64,000 bases of DNA from Escherichia phage sutha: the sequence record PV245934.1; one strand, given 5' to 3'. The first letter of the stretch is position 1. Each line of letters starts with the position of its first letter. The notes under the pieces were generated by a model. It made no database searches. It saw only the letters and a program-made list of their open reading frames with translations, and was not told where the DNA came from. A program made the position numbers and the translations under genes. This document shows, piece after piece, positions 16,997-42,682 of the stretch.

Positions 16997-17175
16997 TTAG
17001 AAATAGACTTTTCACCATTAGAATAGTAAACTTCGAGTTTAGCACGATTATTTTTAATTTGAATAACCTTTGCTGTCATCAAAGTTCCATACCCGTAATA
17101 AACTGCAACCTCATCACCTACATATACCGCGCTTCCGCGGTAGTCATGGATATAATCAGTTCCTTCGAGCATCAT
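16960..17175 (-). CDS. hypothetical protein (71 aa)
   Basis: ORF upstream-coupled to nrdC. Confidence 0.4.
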   Translation of the reverse strand: MMLEGTDYIHDYRGSAVYVGDEVAVYYGYGTLMTAKVIQIKNNRAKLEVYYSNGEKSISKWKYGDCMVKLG

Positions 17176-17435
17176 TTAAAGTATTCCCGCAATTGGTCAA
17201 ATCCACCAATATGACTTCCATCAGGAGCAAATACTTGTGGCATTGTCAACCCAATTTGAGTATCACGACCTAGTTTCGCCAGAAGCTCAGCGATTTTCTC
17301 ATCATCAAAAACACCTTTTTCCGGCATAATGTTGATAAATTCAAACGGCTGTTTCTTCACAGTCAAGAGACGTTTTGCATTATCGCAATATACGCATTTG
17401 TGGATGTTGCTATCATAACCATATACTTTAAACAT
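17172..17435 (-). CDS. nrdC: thioredoxin/glutaredoxin NrdC
   Basis: 87 aa, MFKVYGYDSNIHKCVYCDNAKRLL... matches recalled T4 NrdC nearly exactly; CVYC active site. Confidence 0.95.
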   Translation of the reverse strand: MFKVYGYDSNIHKCVYCDNAKRLLTVKKQPFEFINIMPEKGVFDDEKIAELLAKLGRDTQIGLTMPQVFAPDGSHIGGFDQLREYFK

Positions 17436-22398: not shown

Positions 22399-22926
22399 TT
22401 ATGCGAGTACCGTCTTTAACCGTTCTTCAAACTTCCGAAGAGTATTTTGGCGTTCAGCTCTTTGCTTTTTGTAAGTTTCAATACGCTCTGAAATGAGAGT
22501 GTATCGTTCATTTACTGATTCTTTCATAAAATCAGGAATTTCACGAGAAGCTTTAATCTCATCAAATTTATCAATAACAGCTTGCTCTTCAGCAATTAAG
22601 TTATCATACATCAAAATATCTTTCTTGATGAACTCAATATCTTCTTGAGTTACACGAGATAATTTAGATGCTTTATCCTTTTTGTACTGTTCGTTAGTAT
22701 CACGAGACCAGTGTAATGTACGATTTTTATTCGTATTCTTGTAAATTTCTACAATACCAATCTCATCAATAATAACGATCCAATTCCAACGGGATTTGTA
22801 AATTTGTCCTCCATCAACAGTGATTTCACCTCCGATTGAGATGTCATTAAAGAACTTGCTTTGTGCTTCAGATTTAAATTTACCATCGTTGTAATTTACC
22901 AAGTTGAAAATATCTTTAGCGTTCAT
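22399..22926 (-). CDS. hypothetical protein (175 aa)
   Basis: ORF with GGAGG SD directly downstream of early promoter. Confidence 0.5.
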   Translation of the reverse strand: MNAKDIFNLVNYNDGKFKSEAQSKFFNDISIGGEITVDGGQIYKSRWNWIVIIDEIGIVEIYKNTNKNRTLHWSRDTNEQYKKDKASKLSRVTQEDIEFIKKDILMYDNLIAEEQAVIDKFDEIKASREIPDFMKESVNERYTLISERIETYKKQRAERQNTLRKFEERLKTVLA

Positions 22927-22986: not shown

Positions 22987-23301
22987 CTAAAAGAAACTTC
23001 TTTCACAATTTTTTCCACTGAACCAAGCGCTCACTGCTTTCTTAGTCTCAGGAGCAGTGTTATCCATAAACCATTCAAAGGCAGCCTTTTTATGATTCTG
23101 GAGGGCTTCTCGGGCTTTAATCTGCTCACGGTCTATTAACACTAACATATGAGCCTTTCTTGTCACCAGGGGCTTCTTATGATTTTTTGAATATTCCCAA
23201 TCATTTGTCCATCGCATCGTTGTTGCGAACTGAAATACTGCTTCTTTAATTTTAGTTTCGTAAATTTCACGAGCCTTTGAGTATAACATCATTACCTCCA
23301 T
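22987..23301 (-). CDS. hypothetical protein (104 aa)
   Basis: Minus-strand ORF. Confidence 0.45.
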   Translation of the reverse strand: MEVMMLYSKAREIYETKIKEAVFQFATTMRWTNDWEYSKNHKKPLVTRKAHMLVLIDREQIKAREALQNHKKAAFEWFMDNTAPETKKAVSAWFSGKNCERSFF

Positions 23302-23391
23302 TTACCAGTTTAATTCTAGTCATCTTTTTAACGGCAGTCCATATAATCTATTTCTGAACTGCCTTTTTGTCTTAGAAGGCCTCTTATGAAT

Positions 23392-24372
23392 TTATTTCAG
23401 AAGAGTAACCTCAGCGATTTCTTGCCAACCGTTTTTGTCGGTCATAATAAAGTCAGCAAGATACAGAGCAGTACGCAGTGAAACATTGCGTAAACGATTA
23501 ACATTGACTTTCATCCATGATAATGCTTTATAAGTTTCTTCATCAGAAAGACCGCGCTTTTGCATCATGTCGGTTGAAAGAATAACATCTTCAACCCTGA
23601 CCATAATTTCTTCATTAGTGTGAACACCCAAATCCAAATAAACTGAGCGGGACACTAATGCTTGTAAATGTGGAGCAAGTTTAGTACCACGGTCTAATTC
23701 GCGGTCAATGTCAACGTTTGTGATAAAAACAATCGTTCCTTTAAATTCAAACTCACGCTCAATGCCTTTTTCTTCTAAGTAAGAAGATGCGGTGCTCCAG
23801 CAGACTTTACGGGTCTCTCCAGTGTCCAGAGCAGCTTTCAGAAGATTAAGAATGTCCATATCAGAGAAAACATCCACATCATCAATCAAAAGGACAGAAT
23901 TCTCTTCACGATTATTCCAAAGCTGTTCATAAAGACCGATACCAGAGATTTTACCATTAATGCTTTTATATTCAATGTATCCATTATCATTTGCTTTATT
24001 CAAAGCTTTATCTAAAGAATACGTTTTACCAATACCCGCCGCACCAGAGATAATCAATGAACGAATATTTCCGTTAATAATACCATTCGTCATCATTCCC
24101 ATAACATTAAATCTTTTATTAATGCGGGTTTTCATATCTTCATATGATTCTTTAACTTCTTCAACTTTTACACCATCATATGAAATATCTGATTTGTAAA
24201 CCCAAACACCGCGACGTTTACCGTCAATTTCAACAAAAACTTTACCATCTCCTTGTGCATCTACCGGAGCATTATCTGGGAACCATTCGCCTAAGAGCTC
24301 AAAAGTTCCAGAGATTTCTTTACCGAAGTAGATACCCTTATTGATAGTTACAGTTTTCATTTTATTCTCCAA
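23392..24372 (-). CDS. P-loop NTPase (AAA-like ATPase)
   Basis: 326 aa; Walker A GAAGIGKT, Walker B VLLIDDVD. Confidence 0.65.
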   Translation of the reverse strand: MENKMKTVTINKGIYFGKEISGTFELLGEWFPDNAPVDAQGDGKVFVEIDGKRRGVWVYKSDISYDGVKVEEVKESYEDMKTRINKRFNVMGMMTNGIINGNIRSLIISGAAGIGKTYSLDKALNKANDNGYIEYKSINGKISGIGLYEQLWNNREENSVLLIDDVDVFSDMDILNLLKAALDTGETRKVCWSTASSYLEEKGIEREFEFKGTIVFITNVDIDRELDRGTKLAPHLQALVSRSVYLDLGVHTNEEIMVRVEDVILSTDMMQKRGLSDEETYKALSWMKVNVNRLRNVSLRTALYLADFIMTDKNGWQEIAEVTLLK

Positions 24373-24396
24373 TTTTACATTTGTTTTGATAGGGTA

Positions 24397-24426
24397 ATAG
24401 TATCACACTACTACCCTGCTGTAAAC
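24397..24426 (-). promoter_or_regulatory. T4-type early promoter embedded in palindrome (PeSL-like cassette)
   Basis: GTTTAC - 18 nt - TACTAT; -10 flanked by inverted repeat AGGGTA...TACCCT. Confidence 0.55.
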
Positions 24427-24429
24427 AAT

Positions 24430-24693
24430 TTATTTTAATGTTTGCCAAATTTTTACTGCTTCGCGACGAGATACTTCTACGGCGCCAAGTTCTATAGCTT
24501 TTTGGCGTCGCCGAGCGTGTAAGTCATAATGTTTAATGCGTTTATCTTGAAACCAAGAACGTTTCATTCCTATTGCTTCTGCCATTTCGTGAAGCTCTTC
24601 AATATCTCCATCAGTGAACATATGACAATTTTTAGTTGGATGACCGCGAAGTTTCCATCCATGATTCATTAAAACATCTACGTAAACTGTCAT
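24430..24693 (-). CDS. hypothetical basic protein (87 aa)
   Basis: ORF; start overlaps stop of an upstream 49-aa ORF (about 24690-24839) in ATGA fashion. Confidence 0.45.
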   Translation of the reverse strand: MTVYVDVLMNHGWKLRGHPTKNCHMFTDGDIEELHEMAEAIGMKRSWFQDKRIKHYDLHARRRQKAIELGAVEVSRREAVKIWQTLK

Positions 24694-24875
24694 TGATTCT
24701 TCTCCAAATAAGTTTCGATAATTTTCTGGGCGAGATAAACCGCGTTATCTTCAGTTGCGTCTTCTAAGAAACTTTCAAAACACTCTGAAATTTCTTCTGT
24801 ATCAATCAACTTTTTTACTTCAATTGGTGTAATTTTCATTTTGTTTTCCGTTTAAGTGTTTGTTTTGATAGTTGT

Positions 24876-24905
24876 ATAGTACCATAAAGCTTTATGCTTG
24901 TAAAC
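24876..24905 (-). promoter_or_regulatory. T4-type early promoter
   Basis: GTTTAC - 18 nt - TACTAT on minus strand. Confidence 0.55.
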
Positions 24906-24937
24906 CATTTTGTGAAAAAATTTTGAAATAAAAAAAA

Positions 24938-24953
24938 GGAGCCCGAAGGCTCC
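24938..24953 (-). terminator. rho-independent terminator (UUCG tetraloop) downstream of nucleotidyltransferase gene
   Basis: GGAGCC-CGAA-GGCTCC followed by U8 in minus-strand RNA. Confidence 0.6.
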
Positions 24954-24956
24954 CTA

Positions 24957-25970
24957 TCATTTATAATAACTTCGGTGGTTTTCAAGATAAACCCTCTCAA
25001 GGAAGTCATCCCAGAAACCCATGTCTACTTTTTGCTGCATACCGTTCTTAGAAGCTTCAATGGATGCTGCTTCTACTTGATCGACCACATCTTCCAAAAA
25101 CTCTTGAACAGTTTTAAATGGATGCTTACCCAGCTTCACGTCGAGAATAAATGGAGCATCTTGGAGTGGATAAACCAAGTCACCAGTTTTGTAAATTTCC
25201 AATAGTTGAAGTCCACCACGGCAGGCATGGCTCAGAGCTTTCCAGTCAATGCCTTCGTTGGCTTCGGCCTTACGAGCACGTTCACCGTATTCAGCATCTA
25301 ATTTGTTCAGTGACTGCTTAAGCTCAATAAGAGAAAGCGTTGTCTGATATTTACGACCCAACACAGTGTAGAACGTTTGCGGGCCTGTTTTCTCATGATT
25401 ATGGAACACCCATTCACAGAATTCGTTTTCTGGAAGACGATGCTTAATATCTTCAACTTTAGTACGACGCTGCTTAATGGAACCGTCTTCTTGGTAATCA
25501 ACCCATTGCTCAGGGATTTGATTAACTACTTTCAATACATCGCGTAATGCAGCCAAACGAGAACCCTTGACACCGTATTTAGAAGCTTGCTTGCGGACAT
25601 ATCCTAAATAGGATTTCATGTTAGTCGTATAAAAACGAGAACGGTTGTCTTGAATAAACTTCCACACATCAGGCAAATCAGATTTAACCACTAGCTCAGG
25701 TGGAGTGTGGAGCATATCCAATGCTACAGTTTCACCATCTGCTGCTAATTTAAAGAAATATTTAAGACTGTATAGTTCATGGTCAATATCATCTTTAGTG
25801 TTTTTAGATGATGTGTTGTTAGTGTTTTTACTCATATGCTCTTTAACATTTCCGATAAGAATATCGCGAGCAGGAGGAACAAAGATTTCTTTAAAATCTA
25901 CATCAGATTCTGGAGTAGAAGTTCCATAAAGATGACTACCAAAATAGCTTTTCATTACTGTTTTCATCAT
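24957..25970 (-). CDS. predicted nucleotidyltransferase (Pol-beta-like fold)
   Basis: 337 aa; N-terminal motif FGSHLYGTSTPESDVDF = hG[GS]-x10-DxD, the minimal NTase signature. Confidence 0.55.
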   Translation of the reverse strand: MMKTVMKSYFGSHLYGTSTPESDVDFKEIFVPPARDILIGNVKEHMSKNTNNTSSKNTKDDIDHELYSLKYFFKLAADGETVALDMLHTPPELVVKSDLPDVWKFIQDNRSRFYTTNMKSYLGYVRKQASKYGVKGSRLAALRDVLKVVNQIPEQWVDYQEDGSIKQRRTKVEDIKHRLPENEFCEWVFHNHEKTGPQTFYTVLGRKYQTTLSLIELKQSLNKLDAEYGERARKAEANEGIDWKALSHACRGGLQLLEIYKTGDLVYPLQDAPFILDVKLGKHPFKTVQEFLEDVVDQVEAASIEASKNGMQQKVDMGFWDDFLERVYLENHRSYYK

Positions 25971-26437
25971 TCAGCCTTATATTCAATAACAGGACATACT
26001 TTAGCTTTACGCGCTTTTAAAAATTCGACGATAATAGACTTCTTGGGTTGAATAGGAGGTAAACCTTTATACGCCCTATCAATATTTTCTACATGTAAAG
26101 CATAATCCTTTTTCCATTTATAATCTTTATAATCTTTATATTTTTCATGCAGTTGTGCAGGAATAACAAATGAACCAATAATAAGTAAAACAAGCAAAAT
26201 AGCAAGTATAAATGCTGATGGAATAAGAGTCCATAAACTACCAAAAATAAGCCATTTCTGCATGATTTCTGCGCAGATGATAGTTAGACCTGCTAGTATA
26301 GTACATCCGAAAAAAGAAACGAAAAATGTAGGAATAACAATAGACCAAAAATACGCGCACAGTGTCTTAGGTCGTTTCCATTCATCATTAAACATTTTGA
26401 ATAATTTATAGTGCCAAGAGCTTTCATTAATAATCAT
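25967..26437 (-). CDS. integral membrane protein (156 aa, about 4 TM helices)
   Basis: Multiple long hydrophobic segments; start coupled to NTase gene. Confidence 0.5.
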   Translation of the reverse strand: MIINESSWHYKLFKMFNDEWKRPKTLCAYFWSIVIPTFFVSFFGCTILAGLTIICAEIMQKWLIFGSLWTLIPSAFILAILLVLLIIGSFVIPAQLHEKYKDYKDYKWKKDYALHVENIDRAYKGLPPIQPKKSIIVEFLKARKAKVCPVIEYKAE

Positions 26438-26439
26438 AA

Positions 26440-26961
26440 TTATCCTTTCATTGAAGGTGTAACAGTTGTTAAATACTTAATCATAGCTTCAGCTTCTGAT
26501 TTTGATAATGAAATTTCTCCATTGTTTTGACGAATAGAAATAAAATCCGGATGACGGTCACCACCAGCTTTTAAAACACACATATAAGTATCAGTTTCAT
26601 CTTCAATATCTGAAATGATTGAAGCAGTTCCACATGAATGTGGTTTTTGATAAATCAATGCAGCTTTTCTTCCACCGTTTGACTGCTCATAGGCTTTTAA
26701 TACATCAAGCAAATCAGTTCTTTTATCAATAGCTAAGATGTTGTTTTCATCTTCAATGTTAAATCCTTCGGATACTTCATAAAGTGTCACCCATAAATCG
26801 CCAATATCAATGACAGCATTCACCTTTCCATGATTTTCAAGAGCATTACAAATTTTCTTGATTTCGTCATAACTCATTTTAATAATATCATCTCCTTGAA
26901 TAAGGAAGATGTCATTTTTAAATTTAACACGAATTAAACCACTTTCACTTGAAATAAACAT
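26440..26961 (-). CDS. hypothetical protein (173 aa), paralog of 26968-27522
   Basis: C-terminus SKSEAEAMIKYLTTVTPSMKG aligns with KDEAIALKTYLDSVIPTMISK of neighbour. Confidence 0.5.
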   Translation of the reverse strand: MFISSESGLIRVKFKNDIFLIQGDDIIKMSYDEIKKICNALENHGKVNAVIDIGDLWVTLYEVSEGFNIEDENNILAIDKRTDLLDVLKAYEQSNGGRKAALIYQKPHSCGTASIISDIEDETDTYMCVLKAGGDRHPDFISIRQNNGEISLSKSEAEAMIKYLTTVTPSMKG

Positions 26962-26967
26962 ATTTCC

Positions 26968-27522
26968 TCACTTTGAAATCATAGTTGGAATGACAGAATC
27001 AAGATAAGTCTTTAGCGCAATAGCTTCGTCTTTGGTAAATGTGACAATATGCGATCGAAAATCATCAATTTGGCGAATAGTTAAGACATCTCCCTCTTCA
27101 TAGCATTTTGATACATTTAAAAGAGTTTCATCATTCTGATTGCAAGCGTTAGTAATAATAGCATTGCAATTTTTAAGCCATTTTAAACTACGTTTTCTTT
27201 CATTAGAATAATAAAAATATTTAATCTTAGCTATAAAACTATCCCAATGGATAACTGATAAGCATATTGACTCGCTTTCAATATTAAATCCTGGGCATGA
27301 AGAATAAAAATGAATTTTATGCTCATCATTAATGCTTACAATTTTATCAGTATAAGGATTTTCAATTTGGGTTAAATGAATGATTTCACTAGGCGTAAAA
27401 TATAGCATATCGTCTTCTTGTGTCAAACGATACATATTATTTACTTTTTCTATAGCCAATTCACCAAAAAGTGAACTAACTTCTAATACTAATCGTTTCA
27501 TATTAATCCTTTTTATTGGCAC
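26968..27522 (-). CDS. hypothetical protein (184 aa), paralog of 26440-26961
   Basis: Shared C-terminal motif with adjacent ORF. Confidence 0.5.
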   Translation of the reverse strand: MPIKRINMKRLVLEVSSLFGELAIEKVNNMYRLTQEDDMLYFTPSEIIHLTQIENPYTDKIVSINDEHKIHFYSSCPGFNIESESICLSVIHWDSFIAKIKYFYYSNERKRSLKWLKNCNAIITNACNQNDETLLNVSKCYEEGDVLTIRQIDDFRSHIVTFTKDEAIALKTYLDSVIPTMISK

Positions 27523-27781
27523 GAATTTGTTCTAAAATTTTAGAGTATTCCTTTGTATCAGATTTACGTACAATCGATACACAATAAGGCATACTGTCGG
27601 TGTCTTTTATAAAGCGTTCCAAATGACACTCTAATAAAATTTCTGGATTATAAATCGTGTACATCAAATTACCTGTTGCTCCACGATATTGACAGATTTC
27701 TACTGATTGAACACCATTCCATAATTTTGTTAAGACCAAATCACCTACTTCTAATTTAGGAAAGCCCATGTTATTCACCAA
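27503..27781 (-). CDS. hypothetical protein (92 aa)
   Basis: Minus-strand ORF. Confidence 0.4.
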   Translation of the reverse strand: MVNNMGFPKLEVGDLVLTKLWNGVQSVEICQYRGATGNLMYTIYNPEILLECHLERFIKDTDSMPYCVSIVRKSDTKEYSKILEQIRANKKD

Positions 27782-27956
27782 TTAAAGTTTCAATATAAGA
27801 ATCAAGATTTACTTTAGCTTCTTCCATAAGAGTTTTGTATTTAATCTTGTTAGCATGTCCGGAGAAAGCTGATTCATCAATAATTGTTGATGTATGAACA
27901 GCTTTACTATACGTCTCAATTAATTCTCTTAATTTAAAAGCCTGCTCACTTGTCAT
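27771..27956 (-). CDS. hypothetical protein (61 aa)
   Basis: Minus-strand ORF. Confidence 0.4.
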   Translation of the reverse strand: MTSEQAFKLRELIETYSKAVHTSTIIDESAFSGHANKIKYKTLMEEAKVNLDSYIETLIGE

Positions 27957-28088
27957 TACATACTCCTCTGAATCATATCAATAATGTTGTTCACCAGATT
28001 ATAAGTAAACAAAGGATAATTATATTGAATCATCACATACACAACAAACAAAATTTTCATTCTCTTCTCCTTGGCAGTTGACAAGATT

Positions 28089-28118
28089 ACTATACCATAA
28101 CCTTGTCAACTTGTAAAC
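28089..28118 (-). promoter_or_regulatory. T4-type early promoter within inverted repeat TTGACAAG...CTTGTCAA
   Basis: GTTTAC - 18 nt - TATAGT; -10 sits inside 8-bp inverted repeat. Confidence 0.5.
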
Positions 28119-28967: not shown

Positions 28968-29354
28968 TTATTCGAGGGAAAGAAGATATTTACTTTGATA
29001 AAACATTCCAGTAATATCATCTATCGTACTTTGAATGGCTGGAGGCATTTCTTTGTAAATGCTGTTAGATTGGTCTAGTATGCGATCAATCATTTTAATT
29101 GTGTCGGTAGGAAGTTTACTGGCATCTGGAATAGAAGGTGTGTATTTTCTACCAGAATACCCCAAATATTGCTCACCAAATTTATCAATCAAATCTGGCA
29201 ACTCAGAGAAAATAAAATCGTATGCTTTGTGTCTAGCATAACTTTTAGTTTCAAAATGCGCAGAATGAAAATAAGCTTGTGCAGCCATTAATAAACCTAA
29301 GTATTCATCTGCCTTTGAAGGTTTTCCACTTTGTGAAAAGTCGCTGAATTTCAT
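28968..29354 (-). CDS. hypothetical protein (128 aa, rI.-1 position)
   Basis: Synteny: immediately downstream of rI. Confidence 0.5.
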
Positions 29355-29644
29355 TCAGTCTCCAATTTAATGTTCATAATTCTAGCGTATGATTGTGCCA
29401 TCTCCGCGCCTCGCTCTATACATTCAAAATCGGAAGAGCACGGGTCATTTTTATAGGTCGTTCGCATAAAACTATAGAACTGTTCAGATGATTCTACGCT
29501 TTTATTTTCAAAAAGCATATAAACGTGTCTAATACCAGATTCCATAAATTTATCAAAATGAGGATCGACATTCGCTTCAATCGGTGGAGATAAAGCAAAC
29601 GCTAATCCTAGCATGGCAAATAGTGCCGTTGCTTTTAAGGCCAT
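29351..29644 (-). CDS. rI: lysis inhibition regulator RI
   Basis: 97 aa, MALKATALFAMLGLAFALSPPIEANVDPHFDKFMESGIRHVYMLFENK... near-identical to recalled T4 RI. Confidence 0.95.
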   Translation of the reverse strand: MALKATALFAMLGLAFALSPPIEANVDPHFDKFMESGIRHVYMLFENKSVESSEQFYSFMRTTYKNDPCSSDFECIERGAEMAQSYARIMNIKLETE

Positions 29645-29911: not shown

Positions 29912-30493
29912 TTAACCGAGCTTTTTAGTTAATTCATTCCAATGTTTTCTACACAAAGAAACATAAATTTCATCACCAATACAGATTTGATCACCTTCTT
30001 TAACTGGTGTTCCATCTTCCATTAATCGAGCCGTCATAATCGTTTTTTTACCGCAATGACAAACTGCCTTTAGTTCAATAAGTTTATCTGCAATCGCCAA
30101 AAGTTCTTTAGAACCTTCAAATAATTTTCCGGCGAAATCAGTCCTTAGACCATAAGCCATAACAGGAACATTATATGTATCAACAATTCGACTTAATTGA
30201 TGCACCTGTTCAGTTTTTAAAAACTGGGCTTCATCTACAAATACACAATGAATATCTTTTTGTGCTTCAGCCCATTTATAGAACTCAAAAATATCCATAT
30301 CATCCGTAATAATATTCGCTTCCTGCTTAATTCCAATGCGAGAAACGACTTCACAGACAGAATCGCGAGTATCAATAGCAGGTTTAAGAACTAATACACC
30401 CATTCCGCGTTCTTTATAATTATGCGCAGCAGTCAAAAGAGAAGCAGATTTTCCAGCATTCATTGCTGCATAAGTAAAAATTAAACTCGCCAT
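29912..30493 (-). CDS. tk: thymidine kinase
   Basis: 193 aa; P-loop GKSAS, Zn-ribbon CHCG...C; matches T4 Tk. Confidence 0.95.
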   Translation of the reverse strand: MASLIFTYAAMNAGKSASLLTAAHNYKERGMGVLVLKPAIDTRDSVCEVVSRIGIKQEANIITDDMDIFEFYKWAEAQKDIHCVFVDEAQFLKTEQVHQLSRIVDTYNVPVMAYGLRTDFAGKLFEGSKELLAIADKLIELKAVCHCGKKTIMTARLMEDGTPVKEGDQICIGDEIYVSLCRKHWNELTKKLG

Positions 30494-41729: not shown

Positions 41730-41806
41730 TGGCCAGGGTGAAAGGATTCTAACCTTTAACCTGCGGTTTAGAGGACCGCTACTCTATACAATTGAGTTAC
41801 ACCCCG
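41730..41806 (-). tRNA. tRNA-Arg (anticodon UCU)
   Basis: Cloverleaf folded by hand: acceptor CGGGGTG/CACCCTG, anticodon loop CCTCTAA, T-arm AAAGG-TTAGAAT-CCTTT, CCA encoded. Confidence 0.8.
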
Positions 41807-41912
41807 TAATTAGTTCACAGCAATACCTACTCCAACAATCAAGATGTCTTCACACGAAATTAAGAGAAGAGTGATCAGTTCAACCCCTATAACCGCGTCA
41901 AGTAGATATTAA

Positions 41913-41928
41913 TGTGACAATTGTCACA
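41913..41928. promoter_or_regulatory. perfect 16-bp palindrome TGTGACAATTGTCACA (CRP-consensus-like TGTGA-N6-TCACA)
   Basis: Read directly between tRNA-Asn and tRNA-Arg; flanks AA...AA extend consensus. Confidence 0.35.
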
Positions 41929-41932
41929 AATT

Positions 41933-42007
41933 TGGCGGACGTGATAGGATTCGAACCTATAACCAATCGCTTAACAGGCGATCGCTCTGCCATTGAGCTA
42001 CACATCC
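41933..42007 (-). tRNA. tRNA-Asn (anticodon GUU)
   Basis: Acceptor GGATGTG/CACGTCC, D-arm GCTC-AATGGCA-GAGC, anticodon loop CTGTTAA, T-loop TTCGAAT, CCA encoded. Confidence 0.8.
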
Positions 42008-42011
42008 AAAT

Positions 42012-42098
42012 TGGTGGGGAGTGGTGGAGTCGAACCACCCGAGTCGCAATGACAATGGATTTACAGTCCACACCGCTACCTCTACGGGATAACTCCCC
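42012..42098 (-). tRNA. tRNA-Tyr (anticodon GUA)
   Basis: 87 nt with long variable arm; acceptor GGGGAGT/ACTCCCC, anticodon loop CTGTAAA, T-arm GGTGG-TTCGACT-CCACC, CCA encoded. Confidence 0.8.
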
Positions 42099-42107
42099 TA
42101 ATTAATT

Positions 42108-42184
42108 TGGTGACCCAGACCAGATTTGAACTGATAACCTTTCCCTTATGAGGGGACTGCTGCTAACCATTGAGCTACAGGGCC
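42108..42184 (-). tRNA. tRNA-Ile (anticodon CAU)
   Basis: Anticodon loop CTCATAA, T-loop TTCAAAT, CCA encoded; CAU assigned to Ile by analogy with T4 cluster (could be Met). Confidence 0.7.
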
Positions 42185-42185
42185 T

Positions 42186-42261
42186 TGGTGCTGATTGACG
42201 GAATCGAACCGCCGACGTCCTCATTACAAGTGAGGTGCTCTACCTACTGAGCTAAATCAGC
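42186..42261 (-). tRNA. tRNA-Thr (anticodon UGU)
   Basis: Acceptor GCTGATT/AATCAGC, anticodon loop CTTGTAA, CCA encoded. Confidence 0.85.
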
Positions 42262-42266
42262 AAAAC

Positions 42267-42356
42267 TGGCGGAGGCGATAGGATTTGAACCTATGAGTCG
42301 CCGGAGCGACTGCCGGTTTTCAAGACCGGTGCATTAAACCACTCTGCCACGCCTCC
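42267..42356 (-). tRNA. tRNA-Ser (anticodon UGA)
   Basis: 90 nt class II tRNA with long variable arm; anticodon loop CTTGAAA; CCA encoded. Confidence 0.85.
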
Positions 42357-42358
42357 AG

Positions 42359-42432
42359 TCTCCGCGGCAGGATTTGAACCTGCGACATTCTGCTCCCAAA
42401 GCAGACGCTCTACCAAACTGAGCTACACGGAG
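42359..42432 (-). tRNA. tRNA-Pro (anticodon UGG)
   Basis: Acceptor CTCCGTG/CGCGGAG, anticodon loop TTTGGGA, CCA not encoded. Confidence 0.8.
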
Positions 42433-42442
42433 TAAATTAAAT

Positions 42443-42516
<74 letters not shown>

Positions 42517-42521
42517 AAATT

Positions 42522-42608
42522 TGGTGCGAGAAGTGGGACTCGAACCCACAAGGAAATCATTCCGCAGCATTTTAAGTGCTGTGCCTTTACCAATTTGACC
42601 ATTCTCGC
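42522..42608 (-). tRNA. tRNA-Leu (anticodon UAA)
   Basis: 87 nt class II; anticodon loop CTTAAAA; CCA encoded. Confidence 0.85.
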
Positions 42609-42609
42609 G

Positions 42610-42682
42610 CTGGGAATAAAGGACTCGAACCTTTGCATCTAGCAGTCAAAGTGCTATGCCTTACCAACTTGGCTAATTCCCA
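42610..42682 (-). tRNA. tRNA-Gln (anticodon UUG)
   Basis: Acceptor TGGGAAT/ATTCCCA, anticodon loop CTTTGAC, CCA not encoded; first gene of cluster as in T4. Confidence 0.85.

Follow-up and report, generated by a model that had tools for sequence, protein, structure and literature searches.

The Pnkp/Rnl1 pathway of bacteriophage T4 against PrrC is established. Two further T4 genes, nrdC.10 and nrdC.11, have been annotated since 2006 as an open reading frame (ORF) with an AAA motif and as a gene with a COG3541 nucleotidyltransferase (NTase) domain (Nolan et al. 2006, PMC1524935), and the NTase family, now called RlaP, has meanwhile been studied biochemically. Here we analyse the counterparts of these genes in Escherichia phage sutha (PV245934.1), using a stretch of 64,000 nt (the window) in which all coordinates are given. 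A first-pass annotation of the block at 23392-27956 had described it as a distinct early-gene island. We find instead that it corresponds to the nrdC.10–nrdC.11–mobD.1 early region usual in Tequatrovirus, plus three small accessory cassettes missing in T4, and that it is essentially already known. Its NTase, NrdC.11, is probably a template-independent RNA 3'-terminal NTase of the RlaP family that repairs cleaved tRNAs.

Biochemical data come from Pseudomonas, where RlaP adds one or two nucleoside monophosphates (NMPs) to an RNA 3'-OH, favours Mn2+ and mimics of cleaved tRNA, and recovers part of the aminoacylation of a tRNA that lacks one nucleotide (Carruthers, Fatma & Huang 2025, preprint, 10.64898/2025.12.29.696909). 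The same study found that RlaP labelled RNA, neither E. coli proteins nor DNA, placed T4 NrdC.11 in RlaP cluster 5, noted that T4 encodes Pnkp, Rnl1 and Rnl2, and proposed RlaP as an antidote to nucleotide-excising ribotoxins such as RloC. In jumbo phages, RlaP is the commonest RNA-end NTase and occurs in parallel with RNA ligases (Iyer et al. 2021, PMC7824862). Canonical bacterial RlaP, encoded in RtcB–RlaP–RtcA operons of P. fluorescens and P. aeruginosa, shares with NrdC.11 a Pol-beta core with the GS motif and an Asp triad.

The block is a standard early region of T4-like phages

Every gene between ~13 and 31 kb of the window lies on the minus strand and in T4 order. The series runs from nrdC (17172-17435) through the nrdC.x genes to rI (29351-29644) and tk (29912-30493), and the block sits between nrdC and rI, where the first-pass annotation had placed it. 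The ORFs claimed there all exist, on the minus strand and with the coordinates given, and the domain calls (a P-loop/AAA+ ATPase, a Pol-beta NTase, a membrane protein, a paralog pair and early promoters) were right. The list of ORFs was nonetheless incomplete, as two inside the block had been missed (a DUF4031 gene at 24430-24693 and a 49-aa ORF at 24690-24839). Three of the ORFs had probably been started 12-21 nt too far upstream: the ATPase gene would begin at ATG 24360, which is preceded by GGAG, MobD.1 at ATG 27501 and a Tudor-domain ORF at ATG 27769.

T4 has the gene order nrdC.10, nrdC.11, mobD, mobD.1. Sutha NrdC.10 matches its T4 ortholog at 312/316 residues (99%), NrdC.11 at 330/336 over its full length (98%), and MobD.1 is 84% identical, which bears out an earlier caveat that T4 itself might carry orthologs in its nrdC.10/nrdC.11 region. 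Only a handful of substitutions separate the two NrdC.11 proteins, which belong to the same Pfam family and whose genes have the same UUCG terminator and promoter; the upstream neighbour is the homing endonuclease gene mobD in T4 and a membrane-protein gene in sutha. Likewise, nrdC.10 holds the same position downstream of nrdC.11 in both phages, whereas a cassette of the 49-aa ORF (orf49) and DUF4031 genes and an extra promoter are found only in sutha.

A megablast search with positions 23300-28100 matched 709 phage records. In 306 of these, a single place covered 80% or more of the 4.8-kb query; most of them are Tequatrovirus, with 95-97% identity. Such an arrangement is therefore common among T4-like phages. 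Since nrdC.11–mobD.3 can be deleted from T4 (PMC9825161), the block genes are non-essential early genes and not housekeeping genes. Horizontal acquisition as an island was considered and rejected: the core genes are T4 orthologs, and the G+C content (0.29-0.43 in the block, with a local rise over nrdC.11; 0.29-0.38 in the flanks) is not distinctive.

NrdC.11 represents a long type of RlaP

The NTase gene is the last gene of the first transcription unit of the block:

24957..25970, minus strand: NrdC.11, Pol-beta-superfamily NTase of the RlaP family (PF10127), 98% identical to the T4 protein (NP_049709)

NrdC.11 matched the Pfam RlaP model with 43.8 bits against a gathering cut-off of 23 bits (E 3.3e-11), over residues 7-135 only. 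The NTase signature G-S-x10-D-x-D that had been read from this ORF is present as G11-S12-x10-D23-x-D25. Searching 1.84 billion representative proteins yielded 830 relatives at E<=1e-30, and we aligned 93 diverse homologs (34-54% identity) to assess conservation. Invariant throughout are G11, S12, S22, D23, D25, N57, D63, Y132, K244, H248, R251, P268 and K279. G11/S12, D23/D25 and D63 make up the Pol-beta signature with its third carboxylate; D63 falls on strand 62-68 of the AlphaFold2 (AF2) model. In this confident model (mean predicted local distance difference test score, pLDDT, 94.5), the N-terminal NTase domain leads through a long helix and a beta-rich insert (~155-209) into a helical C-terminal part, which ends in a long helix. 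The crystal structure of PfRlaP combines an NTase domain at the N terminus with a helical C-terminal domain, and its terminal helix packs back on the NTase domain. Searches against PDB sequences, with NrdC.11 alone and with the 93-sequence profile, returned no meaningful match, and a Pfam scan of the isolated C-terminal part found nothing.

Relative to canonical RlaP, NrdC.11 is ~80 residues longer, carries the beta-rich insert, has a diverged helical C-terminal part and is similar only in its first ~120-130 residues. With only the first ~120 residues in common with canonical RlaP, NrdC.11 thus stands for a distinct, longer subfamily.

Bacterial relatives of NrdC.11 lie in RNA-repair operons

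We examined gene neighbourhoods at 80 bacterial genomic loci encoding NrdC.11 relatives (32-54% identity). At 15 of them, RNA-repair genes lie within 4 kb of the NrdC.11-type gene, a context in common with canonical RlaP. The relatives in the operons described next are 33-41% identical to NrdC.11. In one arrangement (e.g. loci L156 and L151), the NrdC.11-type gene directly follows Pnkp, with Hen1 upstream of Pnkp. Locus L133 has the order Pnkp–X–RlaP–Macro, where X is the NrdC.11-type gene and Pnkp comes without Hen1, and L118 is an operon of the order Ro60–RtcB–RtcA–X–RlaP–Hen1–MoxR–VWA. Pfam confirmed these gene assignments. In T4-type phages, Pnkp, Rnl1 and Rnl2 are encoded elsewhere in the genome, outside the window, and the phage ligase genes are not adjacent to nrdC.11.

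Two of these operons (L118, 1558-12060; L133, 3338-8277) hold an NrdC.11-type gene (~320 aa) and a canonical RlaP gene (~250 aa) in tandem, and the canonical gene directly follows the NrdC.11-type gene at 13 of 70 bacterial loci. T4-like phages carry the long type only. The tandem suggests two non-redundant NTases or a heteromer.

A proposed tRNA-repair role for NrdC.11

From these relationships we infer for NrdC.11 the canonical RlaP activity, addition of one or two NMPs to an RNA 3'-OH, and with it an RNA substrate and an anti-ribotoxin role in sutha. In the pathway we propose, a host RloC-type anticodon nuclease would cleave a tRNA and shorten its 5' fragment by one or more nucleotides. NrdC.11 would then add one or two NMPs to the 3'-OH, with two metal ions held by D23, D25 and D63, after which a phage 5'-phosphate RNA ligase, together with end healing by Pnkp, could reseal a full-length anticodon loop. 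The RlaP findings and the T4 Pnkp/Rnl1 pathway against PrrC make the replacement of nucleotides before religation the most likely task of NrdC.11. Counter-defence through repair of tRNAs damaged by host anticodon nucleases is a plausible leading hypothesis.

Several observations weigh against this assignment. Identity to canonical RlaP is 28% over 118 residues, a profile comparison with one canonical RlaP gave a probability of only 8%, and the Pfam model covers only the N-terminal ~130 residues of NrdC.11. The bacterial tandem may mean that the two types do different things. Neither an RNA ligase nor Pnkp is among the 25 conserved neighbour clusters listed for the 41 more distant of 78 phage loci. 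T4 tolerates the nrdC.11–mobD.3 deletion on a laboratory host, with no phenotype given, a result that also fits an accessory role (PMC9825161). Finally, the preprint that characterised Pseudomonas RlaP describes the function of T4 NrdC.11 as unknown, reports an assay in vitro only and lists unresolved issues (10.64898/2025.12.29.696909).

A 10-gene tRNA cluster elsewhere in the window (41730-42682) includes tRNA-Asn(GTT) and tRNA-Tyr(GTA). T4 has eight tRNAs and is not known to carry these two. Both isoacceptors are probably targets of known anticodon nucleases, and their presence may relate to the theme of RNA damage.

Transcription units separate the NTase from the ATPase

We searched for T4-early-type promoters, defined by a GTTTAC -35 element and an extended -10 element, and for intrinsic terminators. 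The resulting elements and units are as follows:

28089..28117, minus strand: T4-early-type promoter, TTTACA-17-TGgTATAGT, 10/12 match with TG extension; heads the operon from the mobD.2-like ORF to nrdC.11
24936..24955, minus strand: intrinsic terminator, UUCG tetraloop on an 8-bp stem followed by a U-run; folding free energy (dG) -14.8 kcal/mol, z-score (z) -3.7
24876..24904, minus strand: early-type promoter, TTTACA-17-TGgTACTAT; here drives orf49 and DUF4031
24397..24425, minus strand: second early-type promoter, TTTACA-17-TGaTACTAT; drives nrdC.10
Transcription unit 1: from the promoter at 28117 through the MobD.2-like ORF, DUF7438, Tudor, MobD.1, y05I paralog, membrane protein and NrdC.11 to the terminator
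Transcription unit 2: from the promoter at 24904 through orf49 and DUF4031
Transcription unit 3: from the promoter at 24425 through NrdC.10 and onward into nrdC.9

The strong UUCG terminator had been taken to close the block. It is real, and the same element occurs in T4, but it is internal, directly 3' of the nrdC.11 stop; the block therefore comprises at least three transcription units. No terminator-like site was found 3' of nrdC.10. The ATPase and NTase genes are thus in different transcription units, in T4 likewise, where the counterpart of the 24904..24876 promoter directly drives nrdC.10. Within unit 1 the genes are tightly packed, with gaps of -4 to +6 nt.

The idea that the early promoters are embedded in palindromes holds for two of the three. 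A 15-bp stem (~28076-28111; dG -19.6, z -5.9) encloses the promoter at 28117..28089 and a 12-bp stem (~24391-24417; dG -15.2, z -3.3) the one at 24425..24397, whereas the promoter at 24904..24876 lacks a strong palindrome (dG -4.6, z -0.25). Both promoter palindromes are perfect and span the spacer to just beyond the -10 element; stable hairpins are expected in read-through RNA from upstream. Separately, the 5' part of mobD.1 contains on its coding strand an almost perfect match to the sigma-70 consensus (27399-27426; TTGACA, 16 nt, TG-n-TATATT; 11/12), which could serve as an internal promoter for the downstream y05I paralog, membrane-protein and nrdC.11 genes.

NrdC.10 is a generic AAA+ ATPase

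The gene downstream of nrdC.11 encodes the ATPase:

23392..24360, minus strand: NrdC.10, AAA+ ATPase, 99% identical to the T4 protein (NP_049708); N-terminal beta domain, AAA+ core and helical lid

The Walker A/B ATPase that had been called at 23392-24372 is well supported, with Walker A (GAAGIGKT) and Walker B (LLIDDVD) invariant in 46 homologs. Numbered on the 326-aa ORF with its TTG start (24372), the invariant positions are Walker A G110-T117, Walker B D164/D165, N219, R242, R295 and R300. NrdC.10 has the Walker A and B motifs, sensor 1, arginine finger, core and lid of an AAA+ protein, and its AF2 model (pLDDT 91) shows an alpha/beta AAA+ core with a lid, preceded by the N-terminal beta domain (residues ~7-66). 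The invariance of these motif residues is consistent with an active, oligomeric ATPase, and the conserved R242 indicates that NrdC.10 probably acts as an oligomer.

We could not assign NrdC.10 to a specific AAA+ clade, and all its Pfam matches were below thresholds. Foldseek matched it about equally to dynein AAA modules, PspF, RFC, RuvB, Hda and ORC/Cdc6 (probability 1.0, E ~1e-5), with dynein-type AAA modules at the top. A search against PDB sequences gave no meaningful match, and a Pfam scan of the isolated N-terminal beta domain gave nothing. An hhalign comparison with the AAA_5 ATPase of L118 reached a probability of 56%, in the P-loop core only; we take this as generic P-loop similarity and not as evidence for a MoxR-like identity. 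The protein is conserved at 55-99% identity in T4-like phages of Escherichia, Klebsiella, Acinetobacter, Aeromonas and Vibrio, and jumbo phages carry truncated homologs without the N-terminal domain. We conclude that NrdC.10 is a generic, separately transcribed AAA+ ATPase.

A small membrane protein is encoded upstream of NrdC.11

Immediately upstream of the NTase gene lies the membrane-protein gene:

25967..26437, minus strand: membrane protein of 156 aa (phrog_944), two long hydrophobic stretches and a basic C-terminal tail

The hydrophobic stretches (residues ~25-60 and 62-98) are real, and so is the translational coupling to the NTase that had been noted, the TGA stop overlapping the NTase ATG (GAATGATGAAA). 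This tight overlap is simply the normal packing of the operon. The protein is confined to T-even-like phages and fast evolving, with only 14 homolog clusters found, and its gene is the immediate neighbour of nrdC.11 at 11 of the 78 phage loci; among the 80 bacterial loci, such adjacency was seen at 2. Compared with PDB chains at E<=10, it showed no similarity except a chance match to unc-93. In Klebsiella-type and related phages (L013-L033, NrdC.11 64-69% identical), the start of nrdC.11 is overlapped instead by an ORF for a non-membrane protein of 140-185 aa.

Alternative explanations

The first-pass annotation had raised the possibility that the NTase, ATPase and membrane protein form one nucleotide-signalling module for defence or counter-defence, either resembling CBASS, Pycsar or Thoeris or mimicking a system of that kind. 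Each of the three component types is indeed encoded here under early-type promoters, and about half of the 78 phage loci have nrdC.10 at a distance of 0.4-3 kb on the downstream side of nrdC.11. In about half, however, it is not found within 8 kb, a terminator and a separate promoter stand between NTase and ATPase in T4 as in sutha, and the membrane-protein gene, which seldom abuts the NTase gene, is missing from T4. CBASS CD-NTases share the Pol-beta NTase superfamily, but NrdC.11 belongs to the Pfam family RlaP, matches no CD-NTase hidden Markov model, has no CD-NTase among its fold matches and is accompanied by no associated effector. Its neighbours are y05I-like, Tudor, DUF7438 and DUF4031 proteins, the small membrane protein and the AAA+ ATPase, with no nucleotide-sensing effector among them. 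A PADLOC scan of the nine ORFs gave none above threshold, NCBIfam likewise, and a Pfam scan found no SAVED, TIR, STING, patatin or other sensor or effector domain. Clear orthology to T4 nrdC.x genes, which had been named beforehand as evidence against a defence-type signalling role, is what we observed. The block is not one functional module, and we consider nucleotide signalling of this kind very improbable. Equally improbable is a Hailong-like pair of membrane protein and NrdC.11, in which an oligonucleotide made by the NTase would gate or silence the membrane protein, for example to exclude superinfecting phages or control lysis. It is suggested by a generic fold match and the adjacency of the genes, yet identity to HalB is 15%, there is no sequence-level relationship to HalB/HalA even with the 93-sequence profile, and no PDB chain is detectably similar to the membrane protein. 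Conservation of the pairing is lacking (direct adjacency at the 11 phage and 2 bacterial loci mentioned above), and in T4 NrdC.11 occurs with no such membrane protein. Hailong serves bacteria in defence, whereas nrdC.11 is an early gene of a phage, with bacterial relatives in operons for RNA repair. That the pair is a phage-borne Hailong-like system for exclusion, lysis timing or as a decoy, with NrdC.10 as an accessory, is a very remote prospect.

Two further readings keep NrdC.11 as an active NTase. It might act in host takeover, tailing host RNAs for decay or nucleotidylating a protein or small molecule as aminoglycoside NTases do. This is unlikely, given that RlaP labelled RNA and not E. 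coli proteins or DNA, and that bacterial NrdC.11-type genes are embedded in Pnkp/Hen1 and RtcB/RtcA operons. Alternatively, NrdC.10 and NrdC.11 could cooperate, the AAA+ protein acting as a remodeller that presents damaged RNA or ribonucleoprotein to the NTase, like the MoxR-type ATPases of Ro60/RtcB operons. The genes are adjacent in the T4, RB69, JS98, Klebsiella- and Acinetobacter-phage groups, the RlaP genes of the L118 operon have genes for an AAA_5/MoxR ATPase and for a VWA protein as neighbours, and the top structural matches of NrdC.10 are dynein-type AAA modules. Set against this are the separate transcription units, the modest hhalign score against the L118 ATPase (P-loop core), the differing distributions (1517 versus 1311 records, different genus counts, and jumbo-phage matches for NrdC.10 only) and the half or so of NrdC.11 loci without nrdC.10 within 8 kb. 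Because of the separate units, the missing neighbour in about half of the 78 loci and the differing distributions, the link between NrdC.10 and NrdC.11 is weak, and we regard their cooperation as quite improbable. Repair of cleaved tRNAs by NrdC.11 remains the reading we prefer.

Accessory genes and differences from T4

The remaining ORFs match only families without known function or carry the label 'putative transcription factor':

27956..28084, minus strand: MobD.2-like small ORF, the equivalent ACG-C40 ORF being annotated 'similar to T4 MobD.2'; start codon uncertain
27771..27956, minus strand: DUF7438 protein, 61 aa; not in T4
27503..27769, minus strand: Phage_tudor domain protein, 88 aa from ATG 27769, E 2.5e-40; not in T4
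26968..27501, minus strand: MobD.1 ortholog, 84% identical to T4 MobD.1, y05I-like N- and C-terminal domains; probable start ATG 27501
26440..26961, minus strand: second y05I-like paralog; not in T4
24690..24839, minus strand: 49-aa ORF (orf49, phrog_6888), in a cassette missing from T4
24430..24693, minus strand: DUF4031 protein, 87 aa, E 1.5e-21; overlaps orf49 by ATGA; not in T4

The two adjacent paralogs that had been proposed at 26440-27522 are confirmed: ORFs 26440-26961 and 26968-27522 share 28% identity (E 4e-9), and both contain the Pfam domains T4_y05I_N and T4_y05I_C, for which 'putative transcription factor' is the Pfam label.

Three cassettes set the block apart from T4. The orf49+DUF4031 cassette, with the extra promoter, is inserted between the T4-shared promoter and nrdC.10, and phage ACG-C40 has an additional ModB-like ADP-ribosylase gene in this slot. 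The y05I paralog and membrane-protein genes occupy the slot that in T4 holds mobD, a free-standing HNH homing endonuclease gene (PMC2988022). The Tudor+DUF7438 cassette is situated between mobD.2 and mobD.1. We class orf49 and the genes for the membrane protein and the Tudor, DUF7438 and DUF4031 proteins as early accessory genes that vary. What looks like an insertion hot spot separates nrdC.11 from nrdC.10 (24840-24956 and 24373-24429): T4 has only the terminator and a promoter there, and sutha the orf49+DUF4031 cassette and a duplicated early-type promoter.

We found no functional studies of nrdC.10, nrdC.11, DUF4031, y05I or MobD.1 in the literature, alternative names and accessions included. 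Labels in GenBank call for care. Many NrdC.10 and NrdC.11 homologs are labelled 'thioredoxin', MobD.1 or MobD.4 appears as 'molybdopterin-guanine dinucleotide biosynthesis protein MobD', and the 61-aa DUF7438 protein is a 'helicase loader', a PHROG label for which we see no supporting evidence here. These appear to be name-propagation errors. NrdC.8 (22399-22926) merely takes its name from the neighbouring gene nrdC, and the annotated records that we consulted list it just as a 'hypothetical protein'; a 2026 paper on DRT1 (PMC13275509) found T4 nrdC.8 down-regulated and treated it as a nucleotide reductase.

Implications

T4-like phages offer a genetically tractable setting in which to ask whether RlaP is an antidote to nucleotide-excising anticodon nucleases such as RloC. 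If true, this role would extend the story of T4 Pnkp and Rnl1 against PrrC.

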